From IMG/VR virus record IMGVR_UViG_3300017649_000200, positions 1-44,579 of that record: a DNA stretch of 44,579 bases, one strand, 5' to 3'. Under the pieces are notes generated by a model. It saw nothing but the letters and a program-made list of their open reading frames with translations. It was not told the DNA's origin and ran no database searches. The number at the start of each line of letters is the position of its first letter. Position 1 is the first letter of the stretch. The stretch comes from a virus (taxonomy: Duplodnaviria; Caudoviricetes). Both the position numbers and the translations under genes were made by a program. Below, in pieces: positions 3,688-17,041 of this stretch.

Positions 3688-4578
3688 GTGCCGACCAGCA
3701 GCCTAAGAACGATGATACTGAAGCACGGGTATCCTGATTTGGATCCCGATGGGCCGCTCCCGGACTACGTCGCCAGAGACGTTGAGCACCATTTGACCGG
3801 CCGTTTTGAGGATTTCGCCGCCAGGTACATCCCCTGGATGGAAAGCTTCCGACCCATTAAGGGGCTCCGCATCCTAGAGATTGGCGCTGGCACAGGCTCC
3901 TCAACGCTTGCAATGGCGCAACGCGGGGCGCATGTCGATGGCATCGACGTTGACCAGCAGGCCCTTGAGATTGCGCGGGAAAGGTTGGCGCGCCACCCTG
4001 ATACGTCAACAGACCTGTTCTACATGAACGGCACAGACATCGACACGCTCAGCGCCGAATATGACATGATCCTGTTCTTCGCGACCTTGGAACACATGAC
4101 GCACAGCGAGCGCAAAACCTCTCTCGCCAAGGCATGGGCCAAGCTGCGTAAGGGCGGCATATTGGGCGTCTTCGAGTGCCCTAACCGGCTCTGGTTCTTT
4201 GATCAGCATACAGCCCTAGCAAACTTCTTCCACTGGCTGCCTGACGAAGTTGCGAAAGACTACAGCCGCTTTACGGAGCGCCCCGTGTATAAGGATGCCT
4301 TCCTTGAAAGGCAGGACGACGACGAGGTGAGACTTGCTCGCTGGGGGCGCGGGGCAAGCTATCACGACATCGAAATCGCGCTGGGATGCAGAATTGGTGA
4401 CCTTAAAGTCCTGCCATCCCTAGAAGACTTCACCTCCGCTCGCGACCAGGGGCGAGCTGATTGGTGGCGCCTGTCGCGGGATGGCAGATTTCGTCAGCTC
4501 CTCCTTGAGATCGAGCCCACGCTCCCACTGGCATTTACCTATCCGTGGCTGGATCTGCTCATCGTGAAGGATAGCTAG
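3688..4578 (+). CDS. Class I SAM-dependent methyltransferase (moron)
   Basis: ILEIGAGTG motif I, GIDVD, YDMILFFATLEH; opposite strand to flanking genes; GGAGG RBS. Confidence 0.85.
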   Translation: MPTSSLRTMILKHGYPDLDPDGPLPDYVARDVEHHLTGRFEDFAARYIPWMESFRPIKGLRILEIGAGTGSSTLAMAQRGAHVDGIDVDQQALEIARERLARHPDTSTDLFYMNGTDIDTLSAEYDMILFFATLEHMTHSERKTSLAKAWAKLRKGGILGVFECPNRLWFFDQHTALANFFHWLPDEVAKDYSRFTERPVYKDAFLERQDDDEVRLARWGRGASYHDIEIALGCRIGDLKVLPSLEDFTSARDQGRADWWRLSRDGRFRQLLLEIEPTLPLAFTYPWLDLLIVKDS

Positions 4579-11700: not shown

Positions 11701-12026
11701 GCGCCCATGGCCCAAGGAGCGAGCGCGGTGAGTGCCACCAAGGCGATAATCGCGCCGATGCTCTTGCCGGTCGCGCCGCTGTTGCCGCCACCGAGCGGAC
11801 GGCTGATGAACTCGACATTGTCATTGGCCGCGAGGTGATAGGCCGACCACTCTGCACGGCTATAATAAAGACCGTTGACGCGGCAGACCGTGAGCAGGCC
11901 GTCGAAGCGCCAGCCAGTGCGGGAGAGGAACCCTTCGATGGTTTCACCCATCGCGGCTTCCGTCTCCCTAACCGGCAGAAGCAGTTCTTCATCGGCTTGG
12001 AGTTGATGCTTAATCGCGAGTTTCAT
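8718..12026 (-). CDS. Host-specificity / central tail tip protein (lambda J-like with N-terminal I-like segment)
   Basis: ARPLQPIPVGYG, FnIII-like region, DUF1983-like C-terminus; true start probably ATG 12026, overlapping the NlpC stop. Confidence 0.85.
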   Translation of the reverse strand: MKLAIKHQLQADEELLLPVRETEAAMGETIEGFLSRTGWRFDGLLTVCRVNGLYYSRAEWSAYHLAANDNVEFISRPLGGGNSGATGKSIGAIIALVALTALAPWAMGAIGLTGTAASIGASLLIAGGAMAISHFLKPKAGGQTDAKDNLYSFGFGGNQARPLQPIPVGYGRTLSFPDFAAPKYSEFDGDNMTEYALLALGCGRYDVEELRISDTTIWTKTGGYNPSFPGVDIQIVPPGQKVTLFPVNVVTATEVSGLELSTTFTAGFSANAAGTQATTLLLDLIFPSGCFWMWKGELRAHSVGVEVQARTINEAGAPTSEWFGIWGKTYTFSKQSQIRMTERISVPAGRYEVRARRTSIPIKDMPPDPRLSGMDDLIWSALRAHIDGPNAFPRVTTIAVRAKASEALQGITNGQLGVIATRMVPVWNGSGFVEQPSRSIAWAALDMWRNADYGAGLPLDQIDFQSFYAYDQLWSSLGHTFDHVFKEPQTLDDALETILKAGRAVPAPVGDRLTIVRDEPRGIPRMMFTDYDIVKDSLTIDYTLADDDIADGIVGEYIDETTFRLAEVSSAPSGVTLAKPARVQLQGVQKRSQATGLVRFMAAENLLRRVTVTWTARAEGRLLKRGDLVLLSCEEPETWGQSAEIVGYNDSSRTLTFDHDLDWNESGNHYIEIRRRDGQPWGPVRVTRGASDRLAVVNASDMAAEATRQGMSLADAVARSDLADRPTAAFSPGQPRTFRVLITEGTPDTDGEHITLSGVVDDPGVYDITEDGVAPLPSVPDVFSRAMPIITTLGANVYQRGLNLILQAGWQPARGAISYIADVSYDNGETWVRAYEGDKTTFEAIVASAQTIRLRVAGITPANVIGAFSIVVVNPPPLVMKNDFFMMEIRPDDLVPELARDLDGLGLLDQVADLAGEGRVVAEEADERARAAITQVAEVQVTADKALAIFGTDVTAEFDESGVTVGERFTAVADVTGQLVGAWKVTVDSAGYFAGLQLIGQNGPGGFQSELKIAVDDFLIGAPGSGFGEEAVFAVSTRNGVARVTMRGDFIADGSINTNQLNALNLTALTAKVTGTLSAGKIASANGKMLIDLDNNRITVSD

Positions 12027-12442
12027 TTGCGCCTGAAGAAACGGCAGTAGTTGAAGCCAGAGGCCCGTAGGGCCGGCAGATCGTCCACGACCACGCCGGC
12101 GGCCTTGTCGATGTGGATCACGGCTGGAGCCGTGACCGGGACAATGTAGGTGCCGAGGTGGAAGTCGCGCTTGGCGACATTGCCCATCAGCACGAGATCG
12201 AGCTCCCGCGCCTCGCCTTCGGGCACTTCCTCCCAAGCCTGACGCTCTGGGTGCGAGAGCATGGCCTCGGCTTGCGCCCGGGTCGTCGGCTCGGCAAAGG
12301 CGACATCCGGCATGTCGATGCCGGCCAACTCCAACTGGATATGGCGGGCGAGCCCGTAGCAATCGAAGGCTTCCGGCCCCCGTGCACCGATCTGGTACGG
12401 CATGCCGATAAGGCTCTCAAAGAAGGCGAGACGATCAGTCAT
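12023..12442 (-). CDS. NlpC/P60 tail assembly protein (lambda K-like)
   Basis: GMPYQIGARGPEAFDCYGL and HLG catalytic motifs. Confidence 0.85.
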   Translation of the reverse strand: MTDRLAFFESLIGMPYQIGARGPEAFDCYGLARHIQLELAGIDMPDVAFAEPTTRAQAEAMLSHPERQAWEEVPEGEARELDLVLMGNVAKRDFHLGTYIVPVTAPAVIHIDKAAGVVVDDLPALRASGFNYCRFFRRK

Positions 12443-12454
12443 CTAGTGCCCTGT

Positions 12455-12486
12455 AAAAAAGGGCAGGCCACCGAAGCGGCCTGCCC
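12455..12486 (-). terminator. Intrinsic terminator closing the GGYNN RNA
   Basis: GGGCAGGCCGC-TTCG-GTGGCCTGCCC followed by TTTTTT on the minus strand. Confidence 0.9.
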
Positions 12487-12585
12487 ACCATGCCGAACCA
12501 CGCCGCACCAGACCAGACCCAGCCGGGCCAAGCCCGACCAACGTCATGGCTCGCCTAGCCACGCCTCGCCTTGGCGTGTTCGCAA
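12455..12585 (-). ncRNA. Putative guide-like ncRNA made of tandem GGYNN pentamers
   Basis: Minus strand: GGCGA GGCGT GGCTA GGCGA (GCCATGACGTT) GGTCG GGCTT GGCCC GGCTG GGTCT GGTCT GGTGC GGCGT GGTTC GGCAT GGTGG, between the RAMP-like gene stop and the terminator. Confidence 0.75.
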
Positions 12586-13155
12586 TCACAGCCTTTCGAC
12601 TGTGAACCTTCCGAACTTCGGTCGCCAATCGCCTATCCCAACGATAGCGCCCGCCGTTCTAAACATCTCCTCGACTTCGCCCGGGTTCAGTTGATCCGGC
12701 AGGAAGTCCACGGAAACCTCACACGACCAATCCCGAAAGATGGGCCTCGTCCGCATTATCCGGTTGCGCTGGACTTTCACGCCCGCAACCAATCGAAACT
12801 TCTGATCAGCCCAAAGCTCGTCGGGGTTCCTCGGCCCCTCATATTGCAGAGGGAACATCCCGTCAGAAAGAAGGCCTGCCTTTGCCTGTTGTCCTCGCCG
12901 GTTTTTCTTGGCCGCTTCCGTCAGCGTTGCTTCAATTAGCGTCCCAGGGATGCAAGGCTCTCCGTCATGAAGGTAGAGCCCGCCGAGAAATTCAAGCCGC
13001 GCCAGTTCCTCAAAATCCGCTTCCGTCTTCGCCCGCTTCTGAGACACCTTCCGCATTGCTTTGGCTATCGGGTTCAGAGGGTCGGCCAATTGCCCATTGT
13101 GCACGACCAGGGGTGATACGCTGGAAAGACGAAACCTCAACGTTTGGTAGTTCAC
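12586..13155 (-). CDS. Solitary RAMP/Cas7-like protein
   Basis: N-terminal beta strand with SPLVVH, PCIPG..I motif, RTRPIF..W.CEV.V strand, C-terminal glycine loop GAIVGIGDWRPKFGRFTV; GTG start with GGAG RBS. Confidence 0.7.
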   Translation of the reverse strand: MNYQTLRFRLSSVSPLVVHNGQLADPLNPIAKAMRKVSQKRAKTEADFEELARLEFLGGLYLHDGEPCIPGTLIEATLTEAAKKNRRGQQAKAGLLSDGMFPLQYEGPRNPDELWADQKFRLVAGVKVQRNRIMRTRPIFRDWSCEVSVDFLPDQLNPGEVEEMFRTAGAIVGIGDWRPKFGRFTVERL

Positions 13156-13444
13156 TGCTGATCTCCGTCCGACCCGGCGTGACGCGCTTTGCATCGCCAA
13201 TCTGGACGGAACTCAGTTTGTAGCGCCGCCGCCGGATCAAGGTTGTGATGGCCTCATGGCACTCGCGGCAGAGCGTGGTCAGATCGTCCACAGTCTCTGT
13301 CCCGAGCGTTGCGGGGTAGCGGCGATGGTGGACCTCAAGATCCTCGGCCCTATCGCATGCCCTGCATCGGAACCCGTCACGGGCCAAAGCCTCCTGTCGA
13401 AGCTCTGACCACCTCAGCGACCGAATGTACTCCTCGTATGTCAA
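13010..13444 (-). CDS. HNH endonuclease (Zn-binding, McrA-like)
   Basis: W..LR..AL.RDGFRCRAC, LEVHHRRY, LTTLCRECH; probable TTG start at 13444 after AAGGTGG. Confidence 0.75.
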   Translation of the reverse strand: MTYEEYIRSLRWSELRQEALARDGFRCRACDRAEDLEVHHRRYPATLGTETVDDLTTLCRECHEAITTLIRRRRYKLSSVQIGDAKRVTPGRTEISSELPNVEVSSFQRITPGRAQWAIGRPSEPDSQSNAEGVSEAGEDGSGF

Positions 13445-13491
13445 TTGCGGTCCACCTTGCCGTGTTCTCGATTTTATGGTTGCATATAAGG

Positions 13492-13680
13492 ATGATTTCT
13501 GCAACCAAAAAATCAAGAGGCAGACCATCAACAGGGGTTGGCACCCCGGTTCAGGTTCGTCTCAACAGTGCCGATCTCGCCAGCCTCGACCGGTGGATCA
13601 GTCAGCAACCCGACCCCAAGCCTTCGCGGCCTGAGAGTATTCGCCACATCCTCCGAGAGTGGCTAGCTAATCGCAAGTAG
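13492..13680 (+). CDS. Ribbon-helix-helix (CopG-like) regulator
   Basis: RGRPSTG..TPVQVRL....LASLDRW....SRPESIRHIL; divergent from the HNH gene. Confidence 0.75.
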   Translation: MISATKKSRGRPSTGVGTPVQVRLNSADLASLDRWISQQPDPKPSRPESIRHILREWLANRK

Positions 13681-14199
13681 TGCCGGGAACCTCTGCATGT
13701 CATAAACCTCGCGCATGACCCGCATATTCTGCGGCCGGGCGATGGCGAGCTGTCCCTCAAGCTGCCGCGCCGTGCGCTTCACGTTGCGCAGGATCAGCTT
13801 GTAGGGCCCCTGCCCGACCGTGTTGGGGTCGGAGGCCAGATAGCCGCGGAAGATCGCCTGAATGGGCGTGTTCAGCTTCACGGCTTCCTCGAGATAGCGA
13901 GAGGCCTCGCGGTTGATGTTGTCGAGCCGGATCGTGGCCTCGGCGCCGAGATTGCCGATGCGGGGATAGTCGATTTCGAACGGGATGGCCTTGAAGAGCA
14001 CCGTCTGCCCGCCGCCGACAGGGGCGCTGTCTTCCAGTCGGAGGTTCATGTCCTCGGTATTCCTCACGGCCCGGATCGGGGCCGGCTGGCCACCCTCGAC
14101 AAAAACCGGGTGGATCAACTCGATCGTGATGAGCATGACCTCATCCTTGGGCGCGGAGGCGGCGGCCTCGGCCCAGGCTTGGGTAGCGGAAATCGGCAC
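13663..14199 (-). CDS. Minor tail protein, DUF1833 family
   Basis: TIELIHP, F.AIPFEI..P, IRLDNI, Y...FPAL; usual position before NlpC/P60. Confidence 0.8.
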   Translation of the reverse strand: MPISATQAWAEAAASAPKDEVMLITIELIHPVFVEGGQPAPIRAVRNTEDMNLRLEDSAPVGGGQTVLFKAIPFEIDYPRIGNLGAEATIRLDNINREASRYLEEAVKLNTPIQAIFRGYLASDPNTVGQGPYKLILRNVKRTARQLEGQLAIARPQNMRVMREVYDMQRFPALLAIS

Positions 14200-14568: not shown

Positions 14569-16580
14569 CAGCGCCCCCTCATCGGAGAGACGCCAAAGCG
14601 GCCCTTGAGAGGCTTGTCGAGTTTCCCGCCTGCGATCATGCCGCTGAGCATCTGCTCGATCTGCACCTCAAGCCGTGGCCCCTGCGGGCCCTGCGTCTGC
14701 CGCGTGGACACCTGCGCCCCTGCGTTGTTGTTGATGACGACCTGCATGCCGCCGCCGCCGAATTTGCCATTGGGCACGATCCGCCCGGGCGTCGTTGGTA
14801 CGAACAACTCCCGCCCGCTCTCGCCCACGGTATATGGCATGCCTGCCTTAACCATGCCGCCCGCCGCCTTGCCCGGCATGAAGGCCTTGAACAAGTTGCC
14901 GATGAGCCCGCCCACGCTGCCATTGGTTCCGGCGTTGCCAAGCAATCCGGCCAGCGGCCCCTGACCCAGCAATGCCGCCTGCAACGCCATGTCGGCGAGG
15001 CGCTTGGTCAGGTTCATGAGAGCTTCTTCGGCATTCTCGCCGCCAGAGATGATGTCGGAGAAGAAGCCGCTAATCGATTGGCCGATGAATTGCTGCAACT
15101 CGACAAAACTTTCCTGGGTCTGCCGCGCTTCTTCCAGCTTTTGGGTCGCCTCGCCGTAGGCTGTCGCGAGCTTCTTGATGTCGGCCTCAAGGGCCGGGGT
15201 GAGTTTGACGTTCGCCTCTTTAGCCGCGGCGAGTAACTCAAACTCAGCCTTCGCTGCGGCAACCTGTGCCGCCGACTGCCCGACCGTCGTAGCTTCTTGC
15301 TGGAGCGCCGCCGTGCGCTCCTTAATAGCCTTGATCTCCTGCTGGAGGTCGTTCAGTTTCTCTTTTCGTGATTTCCCATCATCGGTAACGGCGTAGTCAT
15401 CCAGCGAAATCGGCTTGATGGGTGGAAGATCCATGCCCGCCATCGAGGGCAGCGAAGACTTTGAAGGCGCTGGCGCGGGCTGCCCTGAACGAGCATTCGC
15501 ACGCTGTTGCTCTAGCAAGCCTTGGAGTTCACTCTCCCAATCTGCGGTAAGGCTATTACGGCGCCCATTCTGACGGGACAGGAGCCCTTGAAGCTGTTGG
15601 ATGCGCTGCGACCGCTGGAATTCCTGGGGATCAATTACAGGGGCGTTCGCGCCTCCAGGCAGACTGTCGCGGTAAGCCTTGTTCGCTCTAGCGGCATTCA
15701 AAACAGCAGCGGAAATTCCATCAATGGCTTCAGCGATTTTCCCAAGTGCAGTCGCCGTGCTGCCTGAGTAGTTAACGACCTTATCGAGCTCCCCGACGAG
15801 GTTCGTCATGGATGTCTTGACATTCTCCCACGCCTGCCCCGTTGTCGACGCAGCGCTCGCGGCCTGACGCTCAAGCACAGGCAGTCCGGCTAGAAAGGCA
15901 CGGAAAAAGGCTTGGGAGGAAACCTTCCCGTCCTTCACCAGTTGGGTCAGCTTTGAGACAGAGCCGCCCGCCTCAACGAGACCCGCCGCGACCGCCTGCA
16001 GGACAGGACGTGCCCCGTCAAGAAGGCTGTTATACTCCTCTGCCTGGATCTTGCCCCCGCTGAGGGCCTGCCCAAGCTGGAGAAGAGCACCGGAGGCTTC
16101 AGAGGCTGATGTCCCCTGTACCTTCAGGGCCATAGCAACCCCTTCTGTGACCCTGAGCATCTCCGGCCCGGTAGCGCGTAGATCGCTCTGCGCCTGACTC
16201 AAGCGCCCGTAGAGTTGCGCCATTGCCTCCAGCGGAGCGCCCTGGCGCTGAGCGATCGCGAATATTGCCTGATAGGTTGACCGCAGGCGCTCCCCTTCTA
16301 GCCCCGCAACCTTCAAAGCGTTCTGGACCCGAATGAAGCTATCAGCGAACTGTGTCACTTGCTGGACAGAGAGCCCGGCAAGTACCCCAGCGAAGGCCCC
16401 TTTGATGCTGTTGCCGATCCCGCCCATGATCGCATCGAGCCGCCGCATGGAATTCTGCGTGCGCCGCTCGACATCACGCATGGCCCGGTCCGTCACTTGA
16501 CGGGTGCGGGCCATTTCGCGCTCATACTTCTTGATGTTCGCCTCAAGGACAACCGTAAGGCGTTCGATGTCTGTTGCCAT
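14568..16580 (-). CDS. Tail tape measure protein
   Basis: Tape-measure N domain (ALLQLGQALSGGKIQAEEYNS), coiled coils, C-terminal GGMV..G.PYTVGESGRELFVP. Confidence 0.9.
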   Translation of the reverse strand: MATDIERLTVVLEANIKKYEREMARTRQVTDRAMRDVERRTQNSMRRLDAIMGGIGNSIKGAFAGVLAGLSVQQVTQFADSFIRVQNALKVAGLEGERLRSTYQAIFAIAQRQGAPLEAMAQLYGRLSQAQSDLRATGPEMLRVTEGVAMALKVQGTSASEASGALLQLGQALSGGKIQAEEYNSLLDGARPVLQAVAAGLVEAGGSVSKLTQLVKDGKVSSQAFFRAFLAGLPVLERQAASAASTTGQAWENVKTSMTNLVGELDKVVNYSGSTATALGKIAEAIDGISAAVLNAARANKAYRDSLPGGANAPVIDPQEFQRSQRIQQLQGLLSRQNGRRNSLTADWESELQGLLEQQRANARSGQPAPAPSKSSLPSMAGMDLPPIKPISLDDYAVTDDGKSRKEKLNDLQQEIKAIKERTAALQQEATTVGQSAAQVAAAKAEFELLAAAKEANVKLTPALEADIKKLATAYGEATQKLEEARQTQESFVELQQFIGQSISGFFSDIISGGENAEEALMNLTKRLADMALQAALLGQGPLAGLLGNAGTNGSVGGLIGNLFKAFMPGKAAGGMVKAGMPYTVGESGRELFVPTTPGRIVPNGKFGGGGMQVVINNNAGAQVSTRQTQGPQGPRLEVQIEQMLSGMIAGGKLDKPLKGRFGVSPMRGR

Positions 16581-16627
16581 CAGGGGCTCACAAAGTAAGA
16601 TGCCGCCCCAACGTGAGGGGAGGCTTC

Positions 16628-17041
16628 ATGGCAAAGGGCTTGTTGCGGTTTTTCGGCTTTATCAGCGTTCTGGCTGGGTTCTGCGCGCTAGCCTTCAGCA
16701 TTCTGGCAGGACCTCTAGTTTTCACGGTCGCTGCATGGGGCATCGGAATGCTCCTGGCGGGGGCGCCAATTCTCGGATTTGCTTACGCCCTGGACCTGCT
16801 GGAGCAAATCGCCCGGAACACATCCCCACCCCAGCCCGACAGCCATGAACCGCCACCGACCGAAGCCCCCGCTGTAACGCCGGCAGAACTTTTCCGCCCA
16901 ACAGGCACCTATCGGGGCATCCCATATGCCCAGTACGCAGGGAGTGGCGTCATAGCTATCGTTGAGGGCCAGCGCAGAAGTTGGAGAAGCCTTGCTGAGT
17001 TCAAGGCCGAAATTGACCAGCAACCGGATCAGGTGGTCTGA
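16628..17041 (+). CDS. Membrane protein moron (2 TM helices)
   Basis: GGAGG RBS; two hydrophobic helices; opposite strand, between chaperone and tape measure genes. Confidence 0.65.
   Translation: MAKGLLRFFGFISVLAGFCALAFSILAGPLVFTVAAWGIGMLLAGAPILGFAYALDLLEQIARNTSPPQPDSHEPPPTEAPAVTPAELFRPTGTYRGIPYAQYAGSGVIAIVEGQRRSWRSLAEFKAEIDQQPDQVV

Follow-up and report, generated by a model that had tools for sequence, protein, structure and literature searches.

The GGY-NN repeat found in a 44,579-nucleotide stretch of viral DNA (the window) is the guide RNA gene of a VIPR system. The balance of the sequence comparisons leans slightly towards the cassette that carries it, placed at the end of a tail gene, acting as an RNA-guided homing element. 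VIPR was described in 2026 as a system with a GGY scaffold, NN dinucleotides that carry the information and one skipped target base, usually at the wobble position; its tracts comprise 9–16 GGY/NN repeats, and a match of at least 80% of the NN bases is the mark used for a target (bioRxiv 10.64898/2026.04.26.720920). For the SUSP1 system, the available part of a second preprint describes a Vipr filament on the guide and a gapped pairing with the target (bioRxiv 10.64898/2026.04.26.720927).

The window corresponds to a temperate tailed phage, with genes for integrase, repressor, terminase, portal, capsid, tape measure, tail and lysis proteins. We infer a Microvirga-like host, since Microvirga supplied the closest named homologues for Vipr as well as for the DUF1833 minor tail gene; the best holders were soil metagenomes. 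The cassette is an insert of 1,224 nt between the DUF1833 gene and an NlpC/P60 gene, which overlap directly in many relatives, and it contains, in this order, a divergent 62-aa gene, a 19-nt inverted repeat, an HNH gene, vipr and the guide array (Table 1). No nucleotide match to the cassette was found in annotated phages. One contig of depth 2 joins position 12436 to 13696 and would represent the empty allele; its short side is 28 nt, and it was too weak to be counted.

The matches of the 62-aa ORF were weak (a PHROG repressor, E = 0.007; RHH_1, under the cut-off; atlas values of 0.95–0.96 to CopG/RHH clusters), and a comparable divergent ORF was observed in loci L035, L040 and L048. The inverted repeat is placed between the starts of this divergent regulator and of the HNH gene. 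No sigma-70-like promoter was found within 12400–13750, and no Rfam family was matched in the window. Elsewhere in the phage, two antisense insertions were noted on the plus strand of the late operon, a methyltransferase-like gene and an unannotated membrane-like ORF (3688–4578, 16574–17041).

Table 1. Features of the VIPR cassette and its flanks (positions in the window)
Feature	Position	Strand	Remarks
NlpC/P60 tail gene	12023..12442	minus	downstream flank; abuts the DUF1833 stop in many cassette-free relatives
3' tail, terminator-like	12455..12486	minus	11-pair GC-rich hairpin and U-tract (pattern match, prediction)
Last two pentamers	12485..12494	minus	scaffold-like; unmatched by the target
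Informative vrRNA guide	12495..12570	minus	15 GGY-NN-type units, one of 6 nt
Degenerate first unit	12571..12575	minus	unmatched by the target; alleles CG (n = 27), AG (n = 2)
vipr	12586..13155	minus	189 aa, RAMP (Cas7-like) guide-binding protein
HNH nuclease gene	13010..13444	minus	~144 aa, TTG start inferred; candidate Vap effector
Inverted repeat, candidate operator	13466..13518	.	19 nt, 89% complementary, 15-nt spacer
62-aa divergent ORF	13492..13680	plus	likely ribbon-helix-helix/CopG-type regulator
DUF1833 minor tail gene	13663..14199	minus	upstream flank; target gene in cassette-free relatives
Own target allele	13666..13710	minus	last 15 DUF1833 codons; 22/30 guide bases matched

The 189-aa protein matched the SUSP1 Vipr structure (PDB 36PP) with E = 1.1e-34 over residues 6–187, and the top folds for its structure model (pLDDT 94) were Csm and type VII RAMPs; no Pfam family was matched. 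The functional residues H17, R39, K82, R138, D177, W178 and R179 of SUSP1 Vipr were aligned with H19, R41, K83, R137, D176, W177 and R178, while the steric E71 (T72 here) was not kept, nor was K88 (Q89 here). The conserved Vipr residues are reported to grip the GGY scaffold and the non-target strand. The locus combines a stand-alone RAMP (RRM core, thumb, G-loop) with an adjacent noncoding GGY/NN tract of variable NN, followed by a structured 3' tail predicted as a hairpin and a U-tract. It is a minimal locus, flanked by tail genes, in which the HNH neighbour stands as the candidate vap and no CRISPR array or other cas genes are present. A genome-contig scan with the single protein query returned one locus. 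Arrays were found at 74 of the 82 related Vipr loci, and an HNH gene lay upstream in 72 of the 82. Two loci, L009 and L010, carry distant Vipr homologues (30%) with neither an HNH gene nor a nearby GGY array; pyrimidine-rich repeats downstream of their vipr could represent a non-canonical, opposite-strand array.

The HNH assignment relied on PF01844 (E = 2.8e-6), and the CxxC, VHH and LC-x-CH motifs were invariant in all 19 aligned sequences. In the ~144-aa protein no DNA-binding domain was recognised, the HNH core alone being detected. Its gene overlaps the start of vipr by 146 nt here (13010–13155), and such an overlap was observed in 72/72 HNH-bearing loci (median 131 nt); since the frames differ, this suggests translational coupling or a possible frameshift product. 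Twelve longer homologues (up to 328 aa) were considered as HNH-Vipr fusions and rejected, as they had no Pfam domain and resembled mis-called starts in the overlap. The predicted complex of HNH and Vipr scored 0.01, which was taken as evidence neither way. One RNA-library contig spans 13027–13339 (HNH/vipr), with the guide outside it; it may be DNA and was too weak to count.

The sequence-only reading had listed eleven GGY-NN pentamers, and all of them were present on the minus strand, from 12539 to 12485. Simulating the window 200 times with a second-order Markov model gave longest GGY-NN runs of 3 units in 136 cases, 4 units in 62 and 5 units in 2, and never of 6 or more. The exclusion of a microsatellite and of a protein-coding origin was also upheld, since the tract is intergenic, lying 46 nt past the stop of the 189-aa ORF, and its NN are variable. 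Both boundaries had to be redrawn: six more units are found on the 5' side (12570..12541), four of them perfect and two with one scaffold change each, and on the 3' side the last two NN are uninformative. A single additional T at 12540 separates the upstream units from the eleven-pentamer run, making a 6-nt unit, and the guide NN read, 5' to 3', GA GT TA GA AT GT, extra T, CG TT CC TG CT CT GC GT TC. When compared with the cassette-free alleles described below, the six 5' units matched 11.7/12 bases if the register was carried on through the extra T, and no more than 3.9/12 if it was shifted; therefore, the extra T leaves the target register unmoved. A 6-nt unit was also present in 22 of 157 related guides.

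At the 3' end of the tract, the penultimate pentamer (AT) lies opposite the target stop codon, with 0/2 bases matched in 29/29 alleles, and the final GG is within the terminator stem (12486..12461). Shuffles yielded on average 1.3 sites with a terminator-type hairpin and U-tract, so the argument for a terminator is one of position and not of rarity; hairpins also come after the arrays in related loci. Two other loci (L049 and L104) have long multi-guide arrays with very short linkers in place of hairpins, which resemble the staggered arrays of the VIPR paper.

The idea that GGY is a protein-bound scaffold, that NN carries the information and that one base, at the wobble position, is skipped per unit matches the published VIPR rule and holds here. 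When the 17-unit guide was placed on 29 cassette-free alleles, 23–29 of 34 bases matched with one skipped base, against at most 22 with skips of 0, 2 or 3. In 157 related guides, with 2,194 units altogether, the information was 1.44, 1.26 and 0.87 bits at the scaffold positions and 0.05 and 0.00 bits at the NN positions, a contrast that is partly circular because the caller itself selects GGY. The one-base-skip code is therefore correct, but it had been described previously, as follows from the match of the 189-aa protein to the solved SUSP1 Vipr. For the proposed target, the skip-1 reading stood and the string itself did not, as it needs the six upstream units and has to lose the final AT. 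Used as sole query, the eleven-unit string gave 14 and 9 matches in two 16-base scans of viral contigs, none of them common to both scans and none reaching the upstream units. The best string-only match (L028, 21/22) was rejected, being about what chance gives from 23 seeds and having only 2/14 upstream bases in register.

The guide targets the adjacent DUF1833 tail gene, of which it spells the last 15 codons. Thirty related phage loci were fetched via this gene, of which one (L113) had the same cassette and 29 lacked HNH and vipr at the site. In all 29 cassette-free loci the best skip-1 site was the DUF1833 gene end, where the skipped base falls on the third codon position. The 15 informative units matched 23–29 of 30 bases in these alleles (median 27; 29 for the L114-type allele), and 28 of the 29 reached 24/30, the 80% mark of the VIPR paper; the chance of at least 27 matches at one position is ~6e-14. 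A blind scan of all viral contigs with units 2–10 gave 28 matches, 24 of which were DUF1833 ends, none with vipr within 1.5 kb, on contigs that largely overlap the set fetched via the DUF1833 gene. The full 28-base pattern had 0 matches in metagenomes, and an 18-base pattern had 11, comprising two DUF1833 ends on contigs already known and nine matches without extension. No perfect target was present in the data, and this was counted against the homing reading. Guide unit 11 (NN = TG, in the region of 12529–12525) half-matches both serine AGY (21 alleles) and TCN (8 alleles), a possible compromise or relic.

That the RNA spells the neighbouring gene argues against the HNH gene being an independent, protein-guided homing endonuclease with the VIPR genes as passengers, and so do its ~144 aa lacking a recognised DNA-binding domain and its presence beside vipr at unrelated insertion sites. 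Such an origin is highly improbable, even in a phage rich in free-standing HNH genes and with free-standing homing genes known to target neighbouring genes (PMC2988022, in the part available). At least seven further HNH/endonuclease genes were noted in the phage (1402–2517, 26407–28889, 30194–30655, 44004–44579), several of them clustered before the terminase, and they were weighed against the homing reading.

No convincing self-target had been found by eye in the window; a near-self target exists at the 3' end of the neighbouring tail gene. It matched 22/30 bases, below all 29 cassette-free alleles, and in the continuous 17-unit register the best self match was likewise there (22/34 at 13713). 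At codon positions 1–2, the own allele showed 9.6 differences in the target bin, compared with 3.7 among alleles; the two bins preceding it had 1.2 and 2.0 differences, and one far-upstream bin had 5.9. Among the changes are synonymous swaps that a wobble-skipping code does see (CGN to AGG for Arg, TCN to AGC for Ser), along with the replacements V to Q, S to A and V to I. Because the last 18 nt of the 62-aa regulator ORF overlap the 3' end of the tail gene, part of the DUF1833 gene end appears to come with the cassette. The two occupied copies known at this site (the window and L113) are identical over the region, so that movement between backgrounds is not demonstrable here. Resistant-looking alleles were also observed in phages without the cassette (L119 matched 23/30, and L118 has the same CAG AGG change), and these were counted against homing. 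The DUF1833-NlpC junction is, moreover, an insertion hot spot in L114–L142, with inserts of 84–954 nt in many cassette-free phages; that of L142 contains three ORFs and no array. The hot spot was also counted against the homing reading.

If the cassette homes, each pentamer of the guide would be covered by one Vipr subunit, and each NN would pair with two of every three DNA bases, as the papers show for SUSP1. The HNH protein would be recruited to the DUF1833 end of a sister phage and would nick or cut it when the two phages co-infect a cell or when the sister phage superinfects a lysogen. With the cassette-bearing genome as repair template, the cassette would then be copied together with the recoded, presumably resistant gene end, a joint copying suggested by co-conversion-like tracts in a second phage group (L102). 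The small divergent gene may autoregulate the cassette.

For the L102 group we retrieved 80 flanking-gene alleles and dropped 11 (short upstream sequence, or an array without a visible vipr). The five alleles with vipr matched 19–20 of 24 bases and the 64 without it 20–23, of which 30 were at 23; nine of these 64 matched only 20/24, which was counted against homing. The cassette-bearing alleles were 42–44/45 identical to L143 over the first 45 nt and 30–41/45 over the remainder, whereas the cassette-free alleles closest to L143 were 31/45 identical in the first 45 nt and 37–45/45 elsewhere. Judged from these alignments, the cassette and the recoded target appear to have moved together among gene backgrounds, since the cassette-bearing alleles are alike only over the first 45 nt and the cassette-free ones differ just there. 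A further locus, L039, was mixed (own allele 24/28, cassette-free alleles 26 and 23) and was also placed against homing.

The sharing of a recoded end by otherwise different backgrounds does not favour the idea that the guide was templated from the neighbouring gene at the arrival of the cassette, as a by-product of guide writing, with the own allele later drifting or being selected to escape self-targeting and with no spread. The acquisition of vrRNA is unexplained in the available text of the VIPR papers, and many arrays contain a single neighbour-matching guide among several, as templating would allow; nevertheless, the guide follows the present-day majority allele of the cassette-free phages at most units, and we regard this origin as unlikely.

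Among the 157 related guides, an own-locus match that beat all 60 unit shuffles was obtained for 21 with one skipped base, for 1 with skip 0 and for none with skip 2; with other masks and shuffle counts, 18 and 20 guides matched. Most of these sites belonged to a flanking gene and had their skipped base at the third codon position of an ORF; 12/20 lay at most 350 nt from the cassette, compared with 15% in shuffles (p = 6e-6, p-values here being optimistic because related loci are not independent). The remaining 136 guides had no own-locus match, and neighbour-matching showed no tie to HNH (17/52 HNH-bearing loci and 2/8 loci without a detected HNH); both results were counted against homing. 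In other phyla, the cassettes of L042/L043 and L001 are located beside head-tail genes, and the L042 guide finds its match on the opposite strand, in the gene lying upstream of its HNH.

Neighbour-matching in the loci without a detected HNH would also be expected if the cassette served to exclude sibling phages without homing, a tentative explanation that we consider possible but somewhat improbable. The prophage Vipr and its guide would attach to the tail operon of superinfecting relatives and either silence or destroy it, and the guide would adjoin the resistant allele because linkage holds weapon and immunity together. Silencing of a competing phage is the VIPR activity already demonstrated, and the target belongs to a late structural operon, with NlpC and the central tail gene coming shortly after it, where a roadblock would presumably be polar. 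Selection acting on ordinary recombinants would also make the cassette and the resistant allele travel together; however, the ~45-nt tract common to cassette-bearing alleles in three gene backgrounds is what conversion by break repair predicts. An intact HNH overlapping vipr in 72/82 loci also speaks against exclusion alone, and silencing needs no target near the cassette, yet 12 of the 20 sites were within a few hundred bases of it.

The RNA-guided homing element proposed here was compared with known systems. The SUSP1 and P. fulva type II VIPR systems, as far as covered by the available parts of their preprints (bioRxiv 10.64898/2026.04.26.720920, 10.64898/2026.04.26.720927 and 10.64898/2026.10.15.759431), share with it a Vipr with conserved GGY-binding residues, a GGY/NN guide with a structured 3' tail and the wobble skip, and they are likewise phage-borne and aimed at other phages, with their own genome under the 80% mark. 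They differ in having a DNA-binding Vap1 in place of the HNH nuclease accessory, and in their targets, a satellite or a lysogeny switch there and the sister-phage homologue of the gene adjoining the cassette here; the single guide with 15 informative units, a 6-nt unit and a hairpin-terminator tail is also particular to the present locus. VIPR types III–V have a predicted nuclease Vap, and single-vrRNA systems have been described (bioRxiv 10.64898/2026.04.26.720920); the legend of Fig. S21 of the same preprint lists an HNH Vap among types II, III and VII. Types III and V are placed by that paper in host defence islands as anti-phage immunity, a placement enriched in type III though not absolute, whereas the present locus lies in the tail module of a temperate phage and is aimed at sibling phages.

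In intronless homing, free-standing endonucleases cut the neighbouring gene of related phages and co-convert the flanks (PMC2988022; PMC10448857, in the parts available). The free-standing homing endonucleases of T4-like phages (seg, mob) resemble our cassette in the intergenic location of a nuclease gene between conserved genes and in including the HNH class (mobE), according to the portion of PMC2988022 available. The choice of target would be alike as far as the sequence pattern goes, and co-conversion-like tracts were seen in the L102 group. They differ in using a protein DNA-binding domain, where the cassette is proposed to use a reprogrammable RNA through Vipr, with wobble skipping. The cassette would work like a classical homing endonuclease gene but is not filed as one, since only an HNH core was detected in the ~144 aa, where the classical enzymes take their specificity from their own DNA-binding domain, and the site is spelled by RNA. 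In the OMEGA systems TnpB and IscB, an RNA guide points to the empty site of the element itself. The homing spacer of CasMu, as described in the available part of PMC10910872, is also an RNA guide aimed at the empty site of its element; the present cassette has no transposase, has a class 1-like RAMP filament with a gapped code, and would spread via homologous repair between phages.

No link between VIPR and homing was found in the literature searched; subscription journals and the target tables of the VIPR authors may already hold one. The word 'homing' is absent from the defining VIPR preprint and its supplement PDF (10.64898/2026.04.26.720920), and from the available parts of the VIPR satellite and mapping preprints. 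The code and the VIPR system are already known.

VIPR has so far been demonstrated only to silence DNA. The candidate natural VIPR nuclease of this locus would consist of two small proteins, of 189 and ~144 aa, and a single short RNA; with its natural target decoded and a probably resistant natural allele at hand, RNA-guided cutting can be tested directly. The locus also indicates that the target register can stay in place despite a 6-nt unit, and its matched guide-target pairs are material for work on how vrRNAs come to be written. If homing is confirmed, it would give the proposed class 1 CRISPR ancestor a role as a selfish element, parallel to that of TnpB/IscB for class 2, and would offer a compact editor that is PAM-free. 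Whether RNA-guided homing endonucleases of this kind are widespread in phages, with a VIPR-recruited HNH cutting the cassette-free allele of the adjoining gene and retargeting by rewriting of its NN, appears to us evenly balanced. If true, they would represent a natural programmable gene drive between phages, derived from the proposed class 1 CRISPR ancestor and blind to escape at wobble positions.
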